Made by a program: the position numbers and the translations under genes
In this document: one piece after another, positions 4,993-58,439 of the stretch
Layout of the letters: the number at the start of each line of letters is the position of its first letter
Position numbering within the stretch: the first letter of the stretch is position 1
The notes under the pieces: generated by a model
What the model saw: only the letters and a program-made list of their open reading frames with translations
What the model was told of the DNA's origin: nothing
The model's database searches: none
Assembly: GCA_902526645.1 (NCBI GenBank)
Contig: CABZLS010000003.1
Span: forward strand, 20,773 to 84,772
DNA: 64,000 bases
Direction: 5' to 3'
Source of the DNA: an uncultured Pelagibacteraceae bacterium
GTDB lineage: Bacteria; Pseudomonadota; Alphaproteobacteria; Pelagibacterales; Pelagibacteraceae

Positions 4993-6366
4993 TTAATTAA
5001 GATCAAATATTTTACCAGGATTCATTATATTGTTTGGATCCAAAGTTCTTTTGATTGATTTCATTACTGGAATGTTATCAGGGTGTTGCTCAAGCAAATA
5101 CTCTTTTTTATGAAGCCCCACTCCGTGTTCACCTGTTATAGTTCCATTAAGTTCAAGTGCTTTCTTTATTAGTGTATCGTTAAAAGCTCTGATTTGTTTA
5201 TACATTTCTTTTTTTGTAGGATCATAGGGTAGGACAACATGAAAATTTCCATCACCCATGTGACCTACCATTGGAGCTCTAACTCCAAATTTTTGTGCCT
5301 GCTTCTCTGCATATTTTACACACTCTGTGATCTTTGAAATTGGAACACATACATCAGTGGAATAAACTCTTCCATTATTATGTAAAGCTTTAACAGAGTA
5401 ATAAACATCCCATCTTGCTTTCCAAATTTTATTTCTTTCCTCTAAATCTTTTGCCCACTTAAAAGAGCTCCCTTTATTATCTTTTGATAATTCCTCTACA
5501 ATTTTTATATTTTCTTTATTTGATATCTCTGATCCATGAAATTCAAAAAATAAAGTTGGAACTGCTTTAACATCTTGTAACTTTGAATAATTGATACTAA
5601 TACCCATTTGATCTGCGTTAAGCATTTCAATTCTGGCAATTGGAACACCATACTGAATAACCTGTTGAGCTGTCATGACTGCATCCTCTAAAGAGGGAAA
5701 ATGACATATAGCACTCATTATGCTCTCTGGTATTGGAGATAATCTTAAATGAACTTCAGTGATAATACCAAGAGTTCCTTCTGCCCCAATAAATAGATTT
5801 GTTAAATTATACCCTGCTGATGTTTTTTTAGTCCTACCACCTGTTTTTATGATATCGCCATTAGGCAAAACAACAGTAAGACCTGAAATAACTGTTTTCA
5901 TAGTTCCATATTTCACAGCCATTGTGCCTGATGCTGAGGTTGAAGCCATTCCTCCCAATGCAGCATTTGCTCCTGGATCAATTGGAAAAAAAACACCGTC
6001 CTCTCTTAAATAGTCATTTAATTGCTCTTTAGTTACACAAGCTTGAACTCTACAATCAAAATCTTCTACATTAACACTTAAAATTTTATTCATTTTCTCC
6101 AAACAAATAGTTATACCGTTTTCATTTCCTACAACATTTCCCTCCAAAGAGGTTCCTGTTCCAAATGGAACAACAGGAATTTTATGTTCATTACATATTT
6201 TTAGTATTTTTGAAACTTCATCATTGGTCTCTGGAAACACTACTGCTTGGGATAAAATTGGATCATAAGTGTCTTCACCTCTTGCATAATTAGCTCTAGC
6301 AGATTCAGAAGTTGAAAATCTACTATTAAATATTCTTTTTAACTCTGTTTGAACTAACTCATTCAT
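4993..6366 (-). CDS. FAD-linked oxidase, D-lactate dehydrogenase (cytochrome)/GlcD family
   Basis: PFGTGTSLEG, FPIDPGANAALGGM, GAEGTLGIIT, GHMGDGNFH, GEHGVG, NIMNPGK motifs. Confidence 0.9.
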   Translation of the reverse strand: MNELVQTELKRIFNSRFSTSESARANYARGEDTYDPILSQAVVFPETNDEVSKILKICNEHKIPVVPFGTGTSLEGNVVGNENGITICLEKMNKILSVNVEDFDCRVQACVTKEQLNDYLREDGVFFPIDPGANAALGGMASTSASGTMAVKYGTMKTVISGLTVVLPNGDIIKTGGRTKKTSAGYNLTNLFIGAEGTLGIITEVHLRLSPIPESIMSAICHFPSLEDAVMTAQQVIQYGVPIARIEMLNADQMGISINYSKLQDVKAVPTLFFEFHGSEISNKENIKIVEELSKDNKGSSFKWAKDLEERNKIWKARWDVYYSVKALHNNGRVYSTDVCVPISKITECVKYAEKQAQKFGVRAPMVGHMGDGNFHVVLPYDPTKKEMYKQIRAFNDTLIKKALELNGTITGEHGVGLHKKEYLLEQHPDNIPVMKSIKRTLDPNNIMNPGKIFDLN

Positions 6367-20495: not shown

Positions 20496-21635
20496 ATGAA
20501 ATTTGAAGCCTCTAAGGCTGCGGCCTTAAATAAATTAAACAATTTTGTTGAAAAAAACCTTTTTGAATATTCCAAATTAAGGAATTTTGATTTTGGACCA
20601 GAAAACAGAACAAATATATCTGGTTTATCTCCATATATAACCCATGGAGTAATCAATGAAAAAGAGGTGATAGAAAAATCACTAAGCAAATTTTCTTTTT
20701 CAAAAAATGAAAAATTTATTCAAGAAGTTTTGTGGCGAACATATTGGAAGGGTTGGTTAGAATTACGACCAAACGTTTGGACAGATTACTTAGTTGAGTT
20801 GAATAAAATTCGAGAAGAATATAAAGATAACCAAAATTACAAAAATGCAATAGATGGAAAAACCGATATTGAATGTTTTAATTTTTGGGTAACAGAGCTT
20901 AAAGAAAATAATTATTTACATAATCATACTAGAATGTGGTTTGCTAGTATTTGGATTTTTACATTAGAATTACCCTGGCAATTAGGAGCAGAATTTTTTA
21001 TGCAACATCTTTACGATGGTGACTCTGCATCTAATACTCTTGGTTGGAGATGGGTAGCCGGAATCCAAACACAGGGAAAACACTATCTTGCAAACGAGTG
21101 GAATATTAAAAAATTCACTAATAATAGATTTAATAATATCAAATTAAACGAAAACGCTCCTCCAAAAGTTTCTGAAAAAACTTACTCAATAGTTAAACAA
21201 GATTTTAGCAATAAAAATATAGATAATGAAAATCTTTTTATTTTTGAAAATAGTTTATCATTTGAAACTACAGATTTTCAAAATGATAAATTTAAAAAAA
21301 TCTATATAATTTCAAATAAAAATGAAAATAGATCTATCAAACTAAGTGAAAGAGTTATTAAATTTAAAACTCTTTTAGTAGATGATCAAAAACAAAGATT
21401 AGAAAATAATTCTATTAATTGTGAGGTGGTAGATATAAGTGAGATTAAAAATATAAACGAAAAAGTTATAGCGTTATATCCAACAGTCGGTGAAAACCTG
21501 GATTATTTAAATTCAAATAATTTAAAAATAGATTTTTTATATAGAAAACTTGATCAATATTCATGGCAATATTGTAATAAAGGTTTTTTTAATTTTAAAA
21601 ATTATATTCCTAAAATAATTACAACTTTTAATTAA
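20496..21635 (+). CDS. Short photolyase-like protein (FAD-binding domain at N-terminus, no antenna domain)
   Basis: SGLSPYITHG, FIQEVLWRTYWKGW, YLHNHTRMWFASIW, HLYDGDSASNTLGWRWVAG lie within the first 200 aa; the Rossmann antenna domain is absent. Confidence 0.85.
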   Translation: MKFEASKAAALNKLNNFVEKNLFEYSKLRNFDFGPENRTNISGLSPYITHGVINEKEVIEKSLSKFSFSKNEKFIQEVLWRTYWKGWLELRPNVWTDYLVELNKIREEYKDNQNYKNAIDGKTDIECFNFWVTELKENNYLHNHTRMWFASIWIFTLELPWQLGAEFFMQHLYDGDSASNTLGWRWVAGIQTQGKHYLANEWNIKKFTNNRFNNIKLNENAPPKVSEKTYSIVKQDFSNKNIDNENLFIFENSLSFETTDFQNDKFKKIYIISNKNENRSIKLSERVIKFKTLLVDDQKQRLENNSINCEVVDISEIKNINEKVIALYPTVGENLDYLNSNNLKIDFLYRKLDQYSWQYCNKGFFNFKNYIPKIITTFN

Positions 21636-21853
21636 AACCACCTAAACATCCCGATGATTCCTGCTGTAGCATAAAAAAATTGTAAAAATAATATTCCTCT
21701 GTGACCACCCCTATAGGCCCAAATTCCAATTAAAATTGCGGAAATAAGTAACAAACAAAAACCAAAAAATTCTATGCCAATATTCATAGCTACAAATAAT
21801 GAATATAGTATTGCAGTTATAACTCCTGCCCATTCAAAAATTTTATTATTCAT
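21632..21853 (-). CDS. Small 3-TM membrane protein, PnuC-half-like
   Basis: 73 aa; FEWAG at helix 1 and LQFFY....IIGMFRW at the C-terminus. Confidence 0.65.
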   Translation of the reverse strand: MNNKIFEWAGVITAILYSLFVAMNIGIEFFGFCLLLISAILIGIWAYRGGHRGILFLQFFYATAGIIGMFRWF

Positions 21854-21858
21854 ACTTT

Positions 21859-21996
21859 TTATTCGTTTTCCAACTTGAATTTTTTTCTATTATAAATTTT
21901 TTTTTTGTTTTTTACTATTTTATTTCTGAGCATTGGTGAACTTAACAATTTAGCCATTGGATTTTTCTTCTTTAATTTTTTTCTTTTTTTGCTCAT
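21859..21996 (-). CDS. 45-aa basic protein, ArfA-like (missing from ORF track)
   Basis: Hand translation: MSKKRKKLKKKNPMAKLLSSPMLRNKIVKNKKKIYNRKKFKLENE*; fills the gap between two co-oriented genes (28-nt and 5-nt spacers). Confidence 0.7.
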   Translation of the reverse strand: MSKKRKKLKKKNPMAKLLSSPMLRNKIVKNKKKIYNRKKFKLENE

Positions 21997-22024: not shown

Positions 22025-22714
22025 TTATCTTGCCAATTTTATGAAAATATCACCCATGCCAGCATCTAAATTTTCTAAAGGTGTATTGTTTCTTAAATTA
22101 CAATACCTACCAGTAACTTGGTGGGTTTTAACAAAATCTATTTCGTCTTTTTCACAACTTTTTCCATTATGCAACAAACCTATAACTATTCGATCATCAA
22201 GACTATAAACCTCTGATTTATTAATTTTTTTACCATCGCAAAAATAATCTTTATTTACTCTGTTTGGAAAATCCTGTTTATCGCAAGGATTTTTGATTGT
22301 TAAAACATAAAATTCCTTCAAGCCATCTTTAAATTCATATTTCATTTTTTGAGTTTCAGAGTACTTCATAAGATCACATGAACATGGAACACAACATCTA
22401 TAATAATTTCCACAAATTTTTTTTTTAGTTTTAGTTTCTTCAACAAATAAAAATTCTGTGTCGCTATTTGGATCAATCAAAGATCCAGAAACTGCACAGT
22501 ATAATTTATTAAATTCGATAAAATCCTTATAAGTAATTTTTTTATCTATAATATATTTAAAAAACTTAGGTCCTGCCGCATTTCTATTTTTATCAGGAAA
22601 TATTCTTGACCAATCAGTAATAAGCTCCTTGTGATAGTTTTTTTCTTCAGCAAACGATTTAAGCTGAAATAATATTAAAAATATAATCAAAGAAAGATTT
22701 AAAAATTTTTTCAT
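22025..22714 (-). CDS. Hypothetical secreted Cys-rich protein (10 Cys)
   Basis: Signal peptide ending SFA-EE; CGNYYRCCVPCSCD cluster; ATGA overlap with the upstream gene. Confidence 0.8.
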   Translation of the reverse strand: MKKFLNLSLIIFLILFQLKSFAEEKNYHKELITDWSRIFPDKNRNAAGPKFFKYIIDKKITYKDFIEFNKLYCAVSGSLIDPNSDTEFLFVEETKTKKKICGNYYRCCVPCSCDLMKYSETQKMKYEFKDGLKEFYVLTIKNPCDKQDFPNRVNKDYFCDGKKINKSEVYSLDDRIVIGLLHNGKSCEKDEIDFVKTHQVTGRYCNLRNNTPLENLDAGMGDIFIKLAR

Positions 22715-24141
22715 TTTTGCTTTATGGTAATTGTTTGATTTAACTCACTTACATTGAATAATTTTTTTGTTCCATTGGTCCATTTAACCTCTACTTTAAA
22801 ATTTTTTTCATTTTTTCTAATTCCATAATGTGCCACAGGCTCCATTTGGCATAAGTAACCAGATCCTGCATCAATAGTTTTGGAATGCTTTCTTTTATTA
22901 GTTATTAATGTTACCGTAGCTCCTCTCGCCGGGGCACCATATTTATTTAATGGTTTAATTCTTAGGTATTTATTTTCTTTGTCAACTTTTGCTTTATACA
23001 AAGTTAATGGTTGTTCTTTACTTTCACCACGAGCAACTAACAATTCTAAAACTCCGTCATTATCAATATCTGCGACTGCTGCCCCAGTTCCATACCCTTT
23101 AGCTTCGAGACCAACTTGAAAATTTATCTGTTCAAATTTTCCATCATCTTTAATACGAAATAATTTATTTGGTTCTGCTATATTGTTCATAAAAACTTCA
23201 TCAAAACCATCGTTATCAAAATCTGCAGAAATAATTGTTCTAATTCTAGAAGGTTTATCAAAATCTTTATTTCCTATGTCTTTAAATTCGTTTTTTTCCA
23301 AAACCCAGGCTCTATGATATCCAAGCCAATTACCACTCAGAATATCTAATCTGCCTCGATAATATATGTCTGATAAAGCTGTACCTCTCCCATTTTGGAT
23401 TGAATCATCTACTCTATAATCAAATGCTACATCTTCAAAATTTCCATTATTATTTTTATAAAGATAATTTGCTCCCCTCTCATTTGCTGCAAAAACATCT
23501 GCTCTATCTGACAAGATATGTCCTGATACCACTGCTCTTCCACCAGTGATACTATCAAGATTTAAACTCTGAGCCTTATCTTTAATCAATTCATCTTCAA
23601 TCTCATAAAATCTGGTTGGGCCTCCGTAATTTGCTACATAGACTCCATATTCACCATCTCCCTTTCTATCTACACAAACTACAGATCTTCCTGCTGTTAA
23701 ATTTAGGTTTTCTTTATTTTTTTCTAATTCGAATAAATCAAAATAATTATTATCTTCTATATCTAATAATCTATCTGAATATTTTTTATCCCCACTATAT
23801 GTATCTGTATTTAGAAAGTAAATTTCTTCAAAGCCATCTTTATCGATATCACACGCAGCAACTCCTATAGTTCTTTTTAAAGTATCTGAAAAAATTTTTT
23901 GCTGATTTAGATTCTTTAATTTTCCATCCTGAAAAGATAAAGCTAAGTTAGGATAACCAAATCCTGTTACTAAAAACTCATAATTTCCATCCATATTAAA
24001 ATCTGTTACTGAGATACCATAGCTGAGCCTTTTTTCATTATTTTCAATAATTTTTGATAGATCCTCAAAAAATTCTGCACGAGTATTATTTGTAAGAATT
24101 ACAAAAAAAATTAAAATCAAATATCGAGTAAGATTTTTCAT
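22711..24141 (-). CDS. CRTAC1-family protein (FG-GAP beta-propeller plus ASPIC/UnbV domain)
   Basis: Repeated DxDxDG loops (DFNMDG, DIDKDG, DRKGDG, DFDNDG, DIDNDG); C-terminal GATVTL...IDAGSGYLCQMEPVAHYG. Start moved to ATG 24141, which overlaps the DUF2256 stop and gives a signal peptide MKNLTRYLILIFFVILTNNTRA. Confidence 0.88.
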   Translation of the reverse strand: MKNLTRYLILIFFVILTNNTRAEFFEDLSKIIENNEKRLSYGISVTDFNMDGNYEFLVTGFGYPNLALSFQDGKLKNLNQQKIFSDTLKRTIGVAACDIDKDGFEEIYFLNTDTYSGDKKYSDRLLDIEDNNYFDLFELEKNKENLNLTAGRSVVCVDRKGDGEYGVYVANYGGPTRFYEIEDELIKDKAQSLNLDSITGGRAVVSGHILSDRADVFAANERGANYLYKNNNGNFEDVAFDYRVDDSIQNGRGTALSDIYYRGRLDILSGNWLGYHRAWVLEKNEFKDIGNKDFDKPSRIRTIISADFDNDGFDEVFMNNIAEPNKLFRIKDDGKFEQINFQVGLEAKGYGTGAAVADIDNDGVLELLVARGESKEQPLTLYKAKVDKENKYLRIKPLNKYGAPARGATVTLITNKRKHSKTIDAGSGYLCQMEPVAHYGIRKNEKNFKVEVKWTNGTKKLFNVSELNQTITIKQK

Positions 24142-24266
24142 TTTTTTGATGAACATTTTTTTGAGCAATACTTAACCTTTTCCCAATTGAGTCTCCATTT
24201 CCTTCTCCATTTAAATGGTCTTTGACATATTGGACAAACCTTAATTGGTAAATTTTCTTTTTTCAC
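24138..24266 (-). CDS. DUF2256-type 42-aa zinc-finger protein (missing from ORF track)
   Basis: Hand translation from GTG: MKKENLPIKVCPICQRPFKWRRKWRLNWEKVKYCSKKCSSKK*; overlaps both neighbours (TAGTG, ATGA). Confidence 0.88.
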   Translation of the reverse strand: MKKENLPIKVCPICQRPFKWRRKWRLNWEKVKYCSKKCSSKK

Positions 24267-25756
24267 TAAACTGTGTTTTCTTTAATGAATTTATCTGCAG
24301 CCGACAAAATTAATTTTTTTCTATCCGCTTTCATTTTATCAAAAATTCTTACCATCATTGAAAGTCTTGGATTTTTTAAAAAAAACTTTCTATTACGATC
24401 AATAAATCTCCAGTAAAGTCCGTCCATCGTGTTACACCACTCTCCTTTTTTAAAATCCATCATTTTCATAAAATAACTTGATCCACAAATGTATGGTTTG
24501 GTTGCAAAAATTCCCCCATCACTAAATAACCCCATACCATAAACATTAGGCACCATTACCCAATCTGAGGAATCTACAAACATCTCCATGAACCATTTGT
24601 AAACAATATTAGGTTTTATTTCACAAAGGTTCATTATGTTTGATAAAATCATTAATCTTTCAATGTGATGAGACCATCCAAAATTTAATGCATTTTTAAT
24701 TGCATAATCTAATGGAGGTAAACCTGTCGTTCCATCATACCATGACTTTTTCATTTTACGATTTTGTTTGAAAAAATTTCCAGTTTCCATTTCATTTGAG
24801 TAACTTTGATAAATGCCTCTCATAAATTCTCTCCATCCTATAACCTGACGAACATAGCCTTCTAAAGAATTTAACCTGATTTTTTTACTCTTATGAAAAT
24901 CTAAAACTTTTTTGATAATAAATTCAGGTGTAATTAGACCAAGGTTAATATAAGGACTTAAAGCGCTGTGAAACAAAATATTATCTTTTTGATCAACTGC
25001 GTCTTCGTAATCGCCAAATAAATTAGATTTTTCTTTAATGAAAAAATTCAATAATTTGACTACATCATTATACTCTGTAGCAAACCAAAAATTTTTGGTT
25101 GTTCCTGGATGATCTTTAAATAATTTTTCAATAATAGGTTTCAATTTTTTTGTATGACTTGTTTCATTAATTTTAGGAAACTTTGGAATAGAAATATCTT
25201 TTGGTAACTTATTTCTATTATCTTCATCAAAACTCCATTTACCTCCAATTGGGTTTCCATCTGAACCCATTAATATCCCTGATTTTTTTCTGACATCTTT
25301 ATAAAAAGTTGCCATGAAAGGTTTTTTTGATTTAGATAAATATTGTTTAAATTCCTCTCTTGAATTTAAAAACATTGGAGTTTGAACAACATTCCATTTT
25401 ATTTTTTCTTTTTTAAGAAATTGATTAATTTTTTTTTCAAAAAATTTGTCCTCAATCTCAAAGCTTGAAATTTCTTTTATTTTTTTTGAACTAATTACTT
25501 TTTTTAATTTCTTTAAATAATCGTCTTTAAATTCTTTATCCTCAATTCTAAAGTACTCTAATTTAAACTTATCTTTTTTAAGGGTTTCTGCGTGCGAACG
25601 CATTGATGATAAGAAAAGAAGTATTTTATTTTTATGATGTTTTTCATAAGTGCATAACTGGTAATCTTCAGCCATAAAAAACAGGTGGTCTTTTTTGAAG
25701 CGGTCCAAGTATTTTGATGGAAATAATTGGTTACCCAGTATAAAAAATAACTTCAT
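24266..25756 (-). CDS. Bacterial (6-4) photolyase / cryptochrome of the FeS-BCP (PhrB) clade, lacking Fe-S ligands
   Basis: ILGNQLF, HHKNKILLFLSSMR, GGKWSFDEDNR, FGDYEDA, LFHSALSPYINLG, RQVIGWREF, WSHHIERLM, WVMVPNVYGM, KPYICGSSY motifs. Confidence 0.9.
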   Translation of the reverse strand: MKLFFILGNQLFPSKYLDRFKKDHLFFMAEDYQLCTYEKHHKNKILLFLSSMRSHAETLKKDKFKLEYFRIEDKEFKDDYLKKLKKVISSKKIKEISSFEIEDKFFEKKINQFLKKEKIKWNVVQTPMFLNSREEFKQYLSKSKKPFMATFYKDVRKKSGILMGSDGNPIGGKWSFDEDNRNKLPKDISIPKFPKINETSHTKKLKPIIEKLFKDHPGTTKNFWFATEYNDVVKLLNFFIKEKSNLFGDYEDAVDQKDNILFHSALSPYINLGLITPEFIIKKVLDFHKSKKIRLNSLEGYVRQVIGWREFMRGIYQSYSNEMETGNFFKQNRKMKKSWYDGTTGLPPLDYAIKNALNFGWSHHIERLMILSNIMNLCEIKPNIVYKWFMEMFVDSSDWVMVPNVYGMGLFSDGGIFATKPYICGSSYFMKMMDFKKGEWCNTMDGLYWRFIDRNRKFFLKNPRLSMMVRIFDKMKADRKKLILSAADKFIKENTV

Positions 25757-57870: not shown

Positions 57871-58439
57871 TTTTTCAATTTTCTTAAAATATATACTAAT
57901 TTTGACTTTATAGGTTTACTTTTAAAGTTATTTTCAATAATGAAATTTGATTTTTTCTTTTTAAAAGAAAGCGGAAGTTGTATTCTTCTAAATTCTCTAA
58001 TTAACTTTGAATTGTAACCTCTTCTAAGGATTAATCTTTTTTTTATATCTTTTTTTTTTGATTGTATAAATACAATTATATCATTCTTTTTATTGAGTTT
58101 ATTTTCAAGAAATAAAGGAATATCTAAGATAACAAATTTTTTTTTTTTGTTCTTTGTTAGGAACTTGTTTAATTTCTTTCTTACAATTGGATGAATTATT
58201 CTAGAAATTTTTTTTAAATTATTTTTTTTATCAAGTATACATTTTATAAGATTTTCTTTTTTAATTGGAAAAGTTAAATCATATTTTTTTAATTTTTTTT
58301 TTATTTTGTTAAAACAATTCTTGTCTTTATTATATATCTCTGAAACAATTTTATCCGCATTAAATACGGGATAATCGAATCTATTTGCTATATATGTTTT
58401 ACCAGCACCAATATCGCCTACTATTGCAATTCTAATCAT
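57867..58439 (-). CDS. coaE: Dephospho-CoA kinase
   Basis: GDIGAGKT, FNADKIV, IIHP.V, DIPLFLE motifs. Confidence 0.9.
   Translation of the reverse strand: MIRIAIVGDIGAGKTYIANRFDYPVFNADKIVSEIYNKDKNCFNKIKKKLKKYDLTFPIKKENLIKCILDKKNNLKKISRIIHPIVRKKLNKFLTKNKKKKFVILDIPLFLENKLNKKNDIIVFIQSKKKDIKKRLILRRGYNSKLIREFRRIQLPLSFKKKKSNFIIENNFKSKPIKSKLVYILRKLKK

Follow-up and report, generated by a model that had tools for sequence, protein, structure and literature searches.

Here we describe a 45-codon open reading frame (ORF) on the reverse strand of a 64,000-nucleotide stretch of DNA, hereafter the window (positions 20,773 to 84,772 of contig CABZLS010000003.1), from an uncultured bacterium of the Pelagibacteraceae (SAR11), whose product is, judging by profile comparison, very probably a divergent relative of the ribosome-rescue factor ArfA. 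A first-pass annotation, made from the letters of the window, had proposed this relationship, and the location, strand and length of 45 amino acids that it gave agree with the ORF listing and the sequence. The G+C content of the window is 29%, lysine makes up 44% of the ORF product, and an A/T-rich stretch (21887–21926) falls in the middle of the ORF. Aligned with Escherichia coli ArfA, the protein divides into three segments:

21859–21996, reverse strand: 45-amino-acid ArfA-like ORF, MSKKRKKLKKKNPMAKLLSSPMLRNKIVKNKKKIYNRKKFKLENE; start codon ATG at 21996–21994, stop codon TAA at 21861–21859.
21964–21996, reverse strand: very basic N-terminal segment, residues 1–11 (MSKKRKKLKKK), which in the alignments replaces ArfA residues 1–13.
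21913–21963, reverse strand: core, residues 12–28 (NPMAKLLSSPMLRNKIV), corresponding to ArfA N14–E30 in the hhalign and HMMER alignments.
21862–21912, reverse strand: basic C-terminal tail, residues 29–45 (KNKKKIYNRKKFKLENE), aligned with the ArfA 31–48 segment.

In SAR11, the ORF is a genuine gene that is conserved and under purifying selection. A genome scan with one genome per species recovered 60 loci, 59 of which belong to Pelagibacteraceae and one to a contig labelled Polaribacter; with five further metagenome and genome loci added, the reading frame is intact in 62 loci overall, 60 of them in genome records, which answers the check on conservation that the first-pass annotation had called for. 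The SAR11 genomes carrying the gene comprise single-cell, metagenome-assembled and isolate genomes. Among 40 distinct alleles of 138 nucleotides, 68% of the pairwise differences fall on the third codon position, and the ratio of non-synonymous to synonymous polymorphism (pN/pS) is 0.11 in the frame of the ORF; of the five remaining frames, four give values from 0.85 to 1.9, and the antisense one with the same third positions gives 0.19. Across the 62 loci, differences are found at 38% of the synonymous versus 4% of the non-synonymous sites. A protein search returned 200 homologous proteins, and the 120 among the matches listed come from marine metagenomes, are 84–100% identical and nearly all 44–48 amino acids long. 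Moreover, contigs from four marine metatranscriptomes span the flanking genes on both sides as well as the ORF in its 5′ half, and some extend from the downstream gene into the ORF; these data carry no strand information and possibly include DNA, and lend weak support to transcription of the locus. One might nevertheless suspect a chance open frame in AT-rich DNA whose likeness to ArfA stems from lysine-rich composition: The ORF is short, rich in lysine and embedded in DNA of low G+C content, it has no direct Pfam or NCBIfam match, and its BLASTP comparison with E. coli ArfA is not significant. Set against the intact loci, the homologous proteins, the metatranscriptome contigs and the column-shuffle controls described below, this explanation is exceedingly improbable; as far as sequence data allow, it is refuted by the conservation and codon-position results. 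The sole locus of the genome scan outside Pelagibacteraceae (L062, 578–694) lies on a 2.7-kb contig labelled as a metagenome-assembled genome of Polaribacter sp. and encodes a 38-amino-acid viral-type relative, KKKKNPIAKLLRLPKLRMKIIQSKKIYNRKK; this contig is probably a phage or mis-binned fragment and not a Bacteroidota gene.

The first-pass annotation had based its assignment on an ungapped alignment of the ORF with E. coli ArfA residues 14–34, in which 9 of 21 positions are identical and which is followed by Y-x-R-K, with K-I in place of GKGS. We find this alignment to be correct. Taken by itself, it falls short of significance: BLASTP does not report it and aligns another segment of the ORF and E. 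coli ArfA, with an E-value of 2.3. The E. coli ArfA query sequence agrees with proteins of the Pfam ArfA family (PF03889, gathering threshold 25.5 bits) at 97–100% identity. A phmmer search of the PDB with the ORF yields E 0.53, with ArfA chains as the sole matches, and a profile of the SAR11 family places all six distinct ArfA sequences first in the PDB (E 0.09–0.24), the next match following at E 8.9. In a profile–profile comparison by hhalign, the SAR11 family aligns with enterobacterial ArfA at 76% probability (E 2e-5), and the score of 26.7 compares with 8.6 ± 2.0 for 150 column shuffles (z 9.2). The search with the E. coli ArfA protein gave only enterobacterial copies among the 120 matches listed, and a genome scan with an enterobacterial ArfA alignment found enterobacteria only, its patterns being specific for these organisms. 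Because the E. coli-based searches were confined in this way, we built a diverse ArfA set from phage proteins: The resulting profile comprises ten proteins above the Pfam ArfA threshold, namely those of pf16, J2-1, Bambus, XM05, CRP-212, RXM, Cr30 and RsoM2USA plus two enterobacterial ones. With this profile the SAR11 family aligns over 32–34 columns at 94% probability (E ~1e-7), and the score of 36.1 compares with 7.35 ± 1.51 for 100 column shuffles (z 19). Across all column-shuffle controls z lies between 9 and 21, so that the ArfA match cannot be put down to composition. A further family, DUF4322, was hit by 15 of 32 SAR11 relatives at E 0.003–0.06; these matches are far below threshold and were treated as a composition effect.

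A viral protein closes the gap between the two families in a single step. The protein MAKTKNPMAKLLSSNAYAQRVVRPKKGKGSYSRKQAPLEAYGRA, encoded at 2570–2692 of IMG/VR contig 3300020478_001901 (L191), scores 39.3 bits with PF03889, which is above threshold, and shares 51% of 37 aligned residues with the ORF (BLASTP E 1e-8); the only gap in this alignment, two residues long, falls at GKGS. It joins an N-terminus of the SAR11 type, KNPMAKLLSS, which is identical in the ORF, to the canonical KKGKGSYSRK, and thus reads as a near-perfect intermediate between SAR11-type and canonical ArfA; an alignment across the two groups reveals a continuum. Taken together, the profile match and this one-step link uphold the earlier assignment as a divergent ArfA relative and argue strongly for homology of the ORF to the ArfA superfamily.

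Homologues that lack GKGS are not confined to SAR11. When 1.8 billion representative proteins were searched exhaustively with the SAR11 profile, only 32 matched, among them the protein P0272 at E 9.6e-4. The distant relatives share the pattern [KR]NP[IV]AK-x-L-R-x-P-x-[FL]R-x-R[IV]V-x-x-KK-x-Y-x-RK, and hhalign aligns the SAR11 family with them at 99.2% probability (E 3.5e-19). With the Pfam family DUF7230 (PF23876, threshold 27 bits), the ORF itself gives no match and one of 32 SAR11 relatives matches at E 0.006; among the distant relatives, P0272 (31.8 bits) and the proteins of L166 (33.1), L162 (33.0) and L164 (36.6) score above the threshold. The distant relatives also match PF03889 below threshold, at 12–19 bits. 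The ORF is 62% identical to the DUF7230 protein of Pseudaquidulcibacter (L166; BLASTP E 4e-9), and its residues 9–39 match the phage family phrog_20887 (E 1.7e-6, 28.9 bits), of which a Sinorhizobium phage phiM19 protein is a full-length match (113 bits). A protein of Pseudoalteromonas phage J2-1 without GKGS lies above both the ArfA and the DUF7230 thresholds. On these alignments, the ORF belongs to a GKGS-less ArfA branch that overlaps DUF7230 and phrog_20887 and spans SAR11, other Alphaproteobacteria, bacteria of the candidate phyla radiation (CPR) and many phages. Cellular copies, located by means of a degenerate DNA pattern, are found in Pseudaquidulcibacter saccharophilus, a Hyphomonadaceae metagenome-assembled genome, an unclassified alphaproteobacterium, Saccharibacteria and Paceibacteria; the three alphaproteobacterial ones exceed the DUF7230 threshold.

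The first-pass annotation had also pointed to similar short proteins in phages, and relatives are indeed abundant there. The closest GKGS-less relatives beyond SAR11 are located on T4-like phage contigs (L156, 7001–7240; L157, 1562–1693; L158, 3187–3357), close to genes for the gp45 clamp, the gp44 clamp loader, the RegA translational repressor, gp13, gp15 and lysozyme; one of these three contigs in addition carries a Tet/JBP dioxygenase gene. Further relatives with at most 74% identity occur on marine viral contigs of 31–36% G+C, and others in cultured phages of Sinorhizobium, Rhizobium, Agrobacterium and Acinetobacter. A tblastn search of the phage collection with the ORF as query found nothing, probably because of low-complexity masking; less lysine-rich relatives as queries gave matches. 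Two cultured pelagiphages, HTVC027P (gp30; L159, 326–502) and HTVC034P (gp63; L160, 142–267), carry ArfA-like genes with the motif KG[KR]GSF, which in HTVC027P gp30 reads KKGRGSF; a GKGS-less protein (P0263) is 71% identical to the latter over 21 residues. Both phages infect the SAR11 strain HTCC1062, therefore host and phage each own a version of the gene. GenBank labels gp30 and gp63 as hypothetical proteins, a 2025 paper reports an ArfA domain in HTVC027P gp30, and expression of this gene is reported to occur early and then late again in infection. As a side observation, the genome of Salmonella phage Arash (OQ632216.1) encodes at 57961–58074 a sequence with 63% identity to E. coli ArfA residues 4–41 under a feature named ‘ribosomal protein L2’, a label that is probably a misannotation.

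Evidence that differs in kind from sequence similarity comes from the gene architecture of two chromosomal relatives:

L166, 5042–5206: DUF7230 gene of 54 amino acids, Pseudaquidulcibacter saccharophilus SZ9.
L162, about 5519–5674, reverse strand: DUF7230 gene of 51 amino acids, Hyphomonadaceae UBA1933.

Both proteins contain KNKKTYSRKIKHKKGG followed by a hydrophobic end (AAFFICSFI and AAFIFI, respectively), and their Y-x-R-K-x-K-H spacing equals that of E. coli ArfA Y39–H45. In both genes a GC-rich hairpin with a U-run occupies the last third of the ORF, the stop codon comes just after it, and the fold z-scores are −5.1 (Pseudaquidulcibacter) and −6.4 (Hyphomonadaceae); the L166 hairpin was seen by folding, as a simple terminator scanner misses loops of more than 8 nucleotides. 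In the Paceibacteria copy, too, the 3′ end of the ORF forms a strong hairpin (fold z −3.8). In arfA, a stem-loop causes termination or RNase III cleavage; the protein is consequently translated from a non-stop message, and transfer-messenger RNA (tmRNA) keeps its level low (PMC8012679). The two alphaproteobacterial genes display this published architecture, which points the GKGS-less branch to the same function; in two closely related genes, this is support rather than proof. The SAR11 ORF itself is built differently: It ends with its own TAA after codon 45 and has no hydrophobic tail, no terminator-like site was found in it, and folding against shuffles revealed no hairpin in its message (fold z +1.2 for 221 nucleotides and +0.4 for the ORF). 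This agrees with the first-pass annotation, which had noted the early stop and the missing tail and had predicted independence from non-stop control. By comparison with the L166 and L162 genes, the SAR11 gene has lost the hairpin, the hydrophobic tail and the KH motif, and its expression is presumably constitutive or otherwise controlled and not gated by failure of trans-translation.

The conserved positions of the ORF coincide with those by which ArfA contacts its partners. In E. coli ArfA, residues 1–13 contact h44 and S12, the patch L19/L24/F25 binds Trp319 of release factor 2 (RF2), P23 is placed at the decoding centre (A1492/A1493), and the 31–48 segment occupies the mRNA tunnel; a tail of residues 31–47 is the minimum, N47 marking the shortest active truncation (PMC5378476). 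L17, M22 and L23 of the ORF align with the L19/L24/F25 patch, P21 with P23, and K32, Y35, R37 and K38 with K34, Y39, R41 and K42. Among 32 aligned SAR11 sequences, N12, P13, L17, L18, L23, R24, N25 and K26 are invariant and P21 is nearly so, with M, I, L or A at position 22; the equivalents of ArfA N14, L19, L20, P23, F25, R26, K34, Y39, R41 and K42 vary hardly or not at all in SAR11. The ORF tail comprises 17 residues, including nine Lys or Arg, and roughly equals the tail of N47-truncated ArfA in length, and the stop at codon 46 lies near the end of this truncation. By analogy, the N-terminal segment may take the role of ArfA residues 1–13. An AlphaFold2 model of the monomer is all helix (pLDDT 82, pTM 0.38) and uninformative on the ribosome-bound shape.

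From these correspondences we infer not only how the SAR11 peptide is regulated but also that it binds ribosomes, pairs with a release factor and is active in rescue: It is probably a minimal member of the ArfA superfamily that acts in release factor-dependent rescue of non-stop ribosomes free of trans-translation control. The proposed mechanism copies that of E. coli ArfA. On a ribosome halted at the 3′ end of a stop-less message, the basic tail (residues 29–45) would enter the empty mRNA tunnel of the 30S subunit, and the core (residues 12–28) would occupy the A site. L17, M22 and L23 together with a short strand would then keep a class-I release factor in its open form, RF2 being the most likely one, and the GGQ loop of this factor would cut the peptidyl-tRNA. 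Expression would be constitutive or controlled in some other way. Both the need for such a factor and its partner are indirectly indicated in SAR11. A published survey scored Pelagibacter ubique HTCC1040 as smpB+, ssrA+, arfB−, arfA− and rqcH−, i.e. with the rescue back-ups absent. Elsewhere in SAR11, the ORF is preceded by a gene that codes for a 239-amino-acid GATase or a 225-amino-acid acetyltransferase-like protein and overlaps the ORF by 4 nucleotides (ATGA), therefore UGA is used as a stop codon beside the gene. Termination at UGA requires RF2, so that this usage implies its presence. No release factor was found when the window was searched for GGQ motifs, and a paper on prfB yielded nothing on the Pelagibacter gene.

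Several observations weigh against a functional equivalence with ArfA. At the level of families, the ORF and 32 SAR11 relatives give no PF03889 match at E ≤ 10 and no ArfA match in NCBIfam, and a plain search with a hidden Markov model of ArfA yields modest scores of 22–27 bits because the sequence is short and 44% lysine. At the level of motifs, the ORF lacks the KGKGS that precedes Y-x-R-K and is nearly invariant in canonical ArfA, having K-I instead and being two residues shorter. It also lacks the KH motif (ArfA K44–H45), with F40 and K41 at the aligned positions, and carries Lys at the position of A18, whose exchange in A18T kills E. coli ArfA. Finally, control through a non-stop message is not supported for the SAR11 gene, and a role in rescue leaves its constant pairing with a membrane-protein gene, described below, unexplained. 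Some of these differences recur in related proteins: KGKGS is not strictly required for PF03889 membership, because the protein of phage J2-1 scores 41.3 bits without the motif, and the A18 position is also Lys in phage proteins above the ArfA threshold. The KH motif, common to ArfA and BrfA, is reported to contact the mRNA entry channel (PMC8012679); the alphaproteobacterial DUF7230 proteins have it, as do several ArfA proteins of phages.

The loss of GKGS, KH and non-stop control could also mean that the ORF encodes an ArfA homologue with a different ribosomal job, be it recruitment of RF1 or of either release factor, parking or silencing of vacant ribosomes, or service as a domesticated phage translation modifier. 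The closest relatives outside SAR11, 53–74% identical, reside on viral and T4-like phage contigs, the early and again late expression reported for HTVC027P gp30 would fit such a job, and ArfT demonstrates that small factors can use RF1 or RF2 (PMC8012679). However, the best conserved part of the ORF comprises precisely the residues that in E. coli contact RF2 and the decoding centre, the chromosomal site of the gene is fixed throughout SAR11 and its surroundings contain no phage genes, and the related alphaproteobacterial genes keep an arfA-type hairpin that is sensible only for a back-up of trans-translation. We consequently regard a different job as unlikely, though as the main rival, and continue to favour release factor-dependent rescue.

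The neighbourhood of the ORF comprises the following genes:

21632–21853, reverse strand: very conserved membrane protein of 73 amino acids, starting 5 nucleotides past the ORF stop.
22025–22714, reverse strand: Cys-rich, secreted-looking protein of 229 amino acids with an N-terminal hydrophobic segment; variable upstream neighbour.
22711–24168, reverse strand: FG-GAP/ASPIC-UnbV protein, overlapping the 229-amino-acid gene by 4 nucleotides.
24138–24266, reverse strand: DUF2256 protein of 42 amino acids with two Cys pairs (CPIC...C...C), overlapping the end of the DPRP gene by one base.
24266–25756, reverse strand: photolyase-related DPRP gene.

On the same strand, the order is thus DPRP, DUF2256, FG-GAP/ASPIC, the Cys-rich protein, the ORF and the membrane protein; from the opposite side, another photolyase-family gene runs towards this group, and argG is located past it. 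The first-pass annotation had spoken of a UV-repair operon. Photolyase-family genes do flank the region; an operon is not established, and the term is overstated because the immediate upstream gene varies between SAR11 genomes. The 229-amino-acid gene, for whose product no family match was found, lies upstream of the ORF in 19 of 61 SAR11 loci, and the pair that it forms with the FG-GAP/ASPIC-UnbV gene is confined to some SAR11 genomes. Since some SAR11 loci have the GATase gene after DPRP, the region from DPRP to the ORF looks like a variable island. The conserved unit consists of the ORF and the small membrane protein: A membrane gene of 73–80 codons follows the ORF in 49 of the 61 loci at similar spacing, i.e. 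2–5 nucleotides or an overlap of a few nucleotides when counted from an upstream alternative start codon. In the window the two genes are probably co-transcribed, and the only hint at a family for the membrane protein is a weak match to the N-terminal third of PnuC (E 0.11).

This pairing, together with the variability of the upstream gene, would suit a small basic peptide tied to the membrane protein as a coupled leader or small subunit, in which case the likeness to ArfA would be convergent or a relic. The abundance of AAA lysine codons could be read in the same direction: They create runs of 10 A in the window (21903–21912) and of 15 A in L004 (6001–6025). As a side observation, A runs of such length can cause sliding of E. 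coli ribosomes. What speaks against a leader or subunit is that selection acts on the amino-acid sequence (pN/pS 0.11), that the relatives in phages, other Alphaproteobacteria and CPR bacteria have no membrane neighbour, that column shuffles exclude composition, and that a single BLASTP step leads to a protein above the Pfam ArfA threshold. We thus judge a primary tie to the membrane protein to be quite improbable, and retain a rescue factor of the ArfA superfamily as the preferred assignment.

As regards what was known before, the ORF is not unannotated as the first-pass annotation had it: At least 1000 public contigs have a gene call for exactly this 45-amino-acid protein, which is also present in NCBI nr, IMG gives the name ‘stalled ribosome alternative rescue factor ArfA’ to a protein that clusters with it at 90% identity, and the automatic annotation of IMG already names several copies ArfA. 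The first-pass annotation had called an alphaproteobacterial ArfA unexpected; reviews confine ArfA to some beta- and gamma-proteobacteria (PMC8012679). None of 2376 Alphaproteobacteria had arfA in a survey of 15,259 genomes, which scored Pelagibacter with trans-translation and nothing else. In the literature searched, no paper ties ArfA to the SAR11 chromosome, the only related report being that of the pelagiphage gene, and DUF7230 is neither mentioned nor assigned a published function. With a shade more doubt than confidence, we propose that DUF7230/phrog_20887 constitutes a large unrecognised ArfA branch in SAR11, other Alphaproteobacteria, CPR bacteria and many marine and soil phages, in which the SAR11 factor has been streamlined to 45 amino acids with its own stop codon and uncoupled from trans-translation. 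If this is true, SAR11, thought to rely on tmRNA only and the most abundant bacteria of the ocean, run two rescue routes, and their phages carry copies of their own; a working ArfA relative would fill the rescue gap of one of Earth's most abundant organisms. Furthermore, surveys based on nucleotide searches or thresholds would miss a whole ArfA branch, DUF7230 would gain a testable function, and a natural ArfA without non-stop switch, KGKGS and KH would delimit the minimal sequence for release-factor recruitment. Close relatives are widespread in pelagiphages and T4-like phages, which suggests that a rescue factor is routinely delivered by the infecting phage. Should activity be absent, the case would still show how far the ArfA fold can drift.

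In comparison with known rescue systems, the ORF would share with ArfB (YaeJ) the function as a back-up of trans-translation and the placement of a basic C-terminal tail in the mRNA tunnel. Unlike the ORF, ArfB carries its own GGQ hydrolase domain, for which a peptide of 45 amino acids is too small; it is reported in 2022 of 2376 alphaproteobacterial genomes and scored absent in Pelagibacter. The job proposed for the ORF product is of the same kind as that of BrfA of Bacillus and ArfT of Francisella, other small release factor-dependent rescue factors: a short basic peptide senses the empty tunnel and recruits a release factor (PMC8012679). A BrfA match was not seen for the ORF, and BrfA is treated as evolutionarily independent of ArfA (PMC8012679). 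ArfT belongs to a widespread repeat family (PMC6514570), and an identity of the ORF with ArfT was rejected, as Pfam gave no ArfT repeat family for it.

Closer relationships exist to the phage ArfA proteins. The ORF has the N-terminal motif NP-x-AK in common with HTVC027P gp30, HTVC034P gp63, the L191 protein and those of roseophage CRP-212, Caulobacter phage Cr30, Brevundimonas phage Bambus and Citromicrobium phage RXM, and like the phage ArfA-like proteins, which comprise 37–60 amino acids, it is short and ends with its own stop codon. In contrast to the SAR11 gene at its fixed chromosomal site, these proteins are phage-borne, and most of them keep KG[KR]GS[YF] and exceed the Pfam ArfA threshold. 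With the uncharacterised DUF7230/phrog_20887 proteins of 40–55 amino acids, the ORF shares [KR]NP[IV]AK-x-L-x-x-P-x-[FL]R-x-[RK][IV]V-x-x-KK-x-Y-x-RK; it differs from the two alphaproteobacterial DUF7230 genes in that KH, hairpin and tail, all present there, are missing.

E. coli ArfA itself (YhdL; PF03889; PDB 5MGP, 5MDV, 5U4I, 7OJ0) differs from the ORF in its far less basic N-terminus and in the possession of KGKGS, where the ORF shows a two-residue deletion, and of KH. The ORF, moreover, scores below the Pfam threshold, resides in an alphaproteobacterial host and has its own stop without intra-ORF hairpin or hydrophobic tail, hence would not be subject to tmRNA control. Yet both are small basic peptides with a basic tail of tunnel length, and both display the core N-x-x-x-x-L-L-x-x-P-[LM]-[FL]-R-x-[RK]-[VI]-x-K-N-K-K followed by Y-x-R-K; the ORF keeps the hydrophobic patch and the proline, and its total length equals that of the active truncated form of ArfA.

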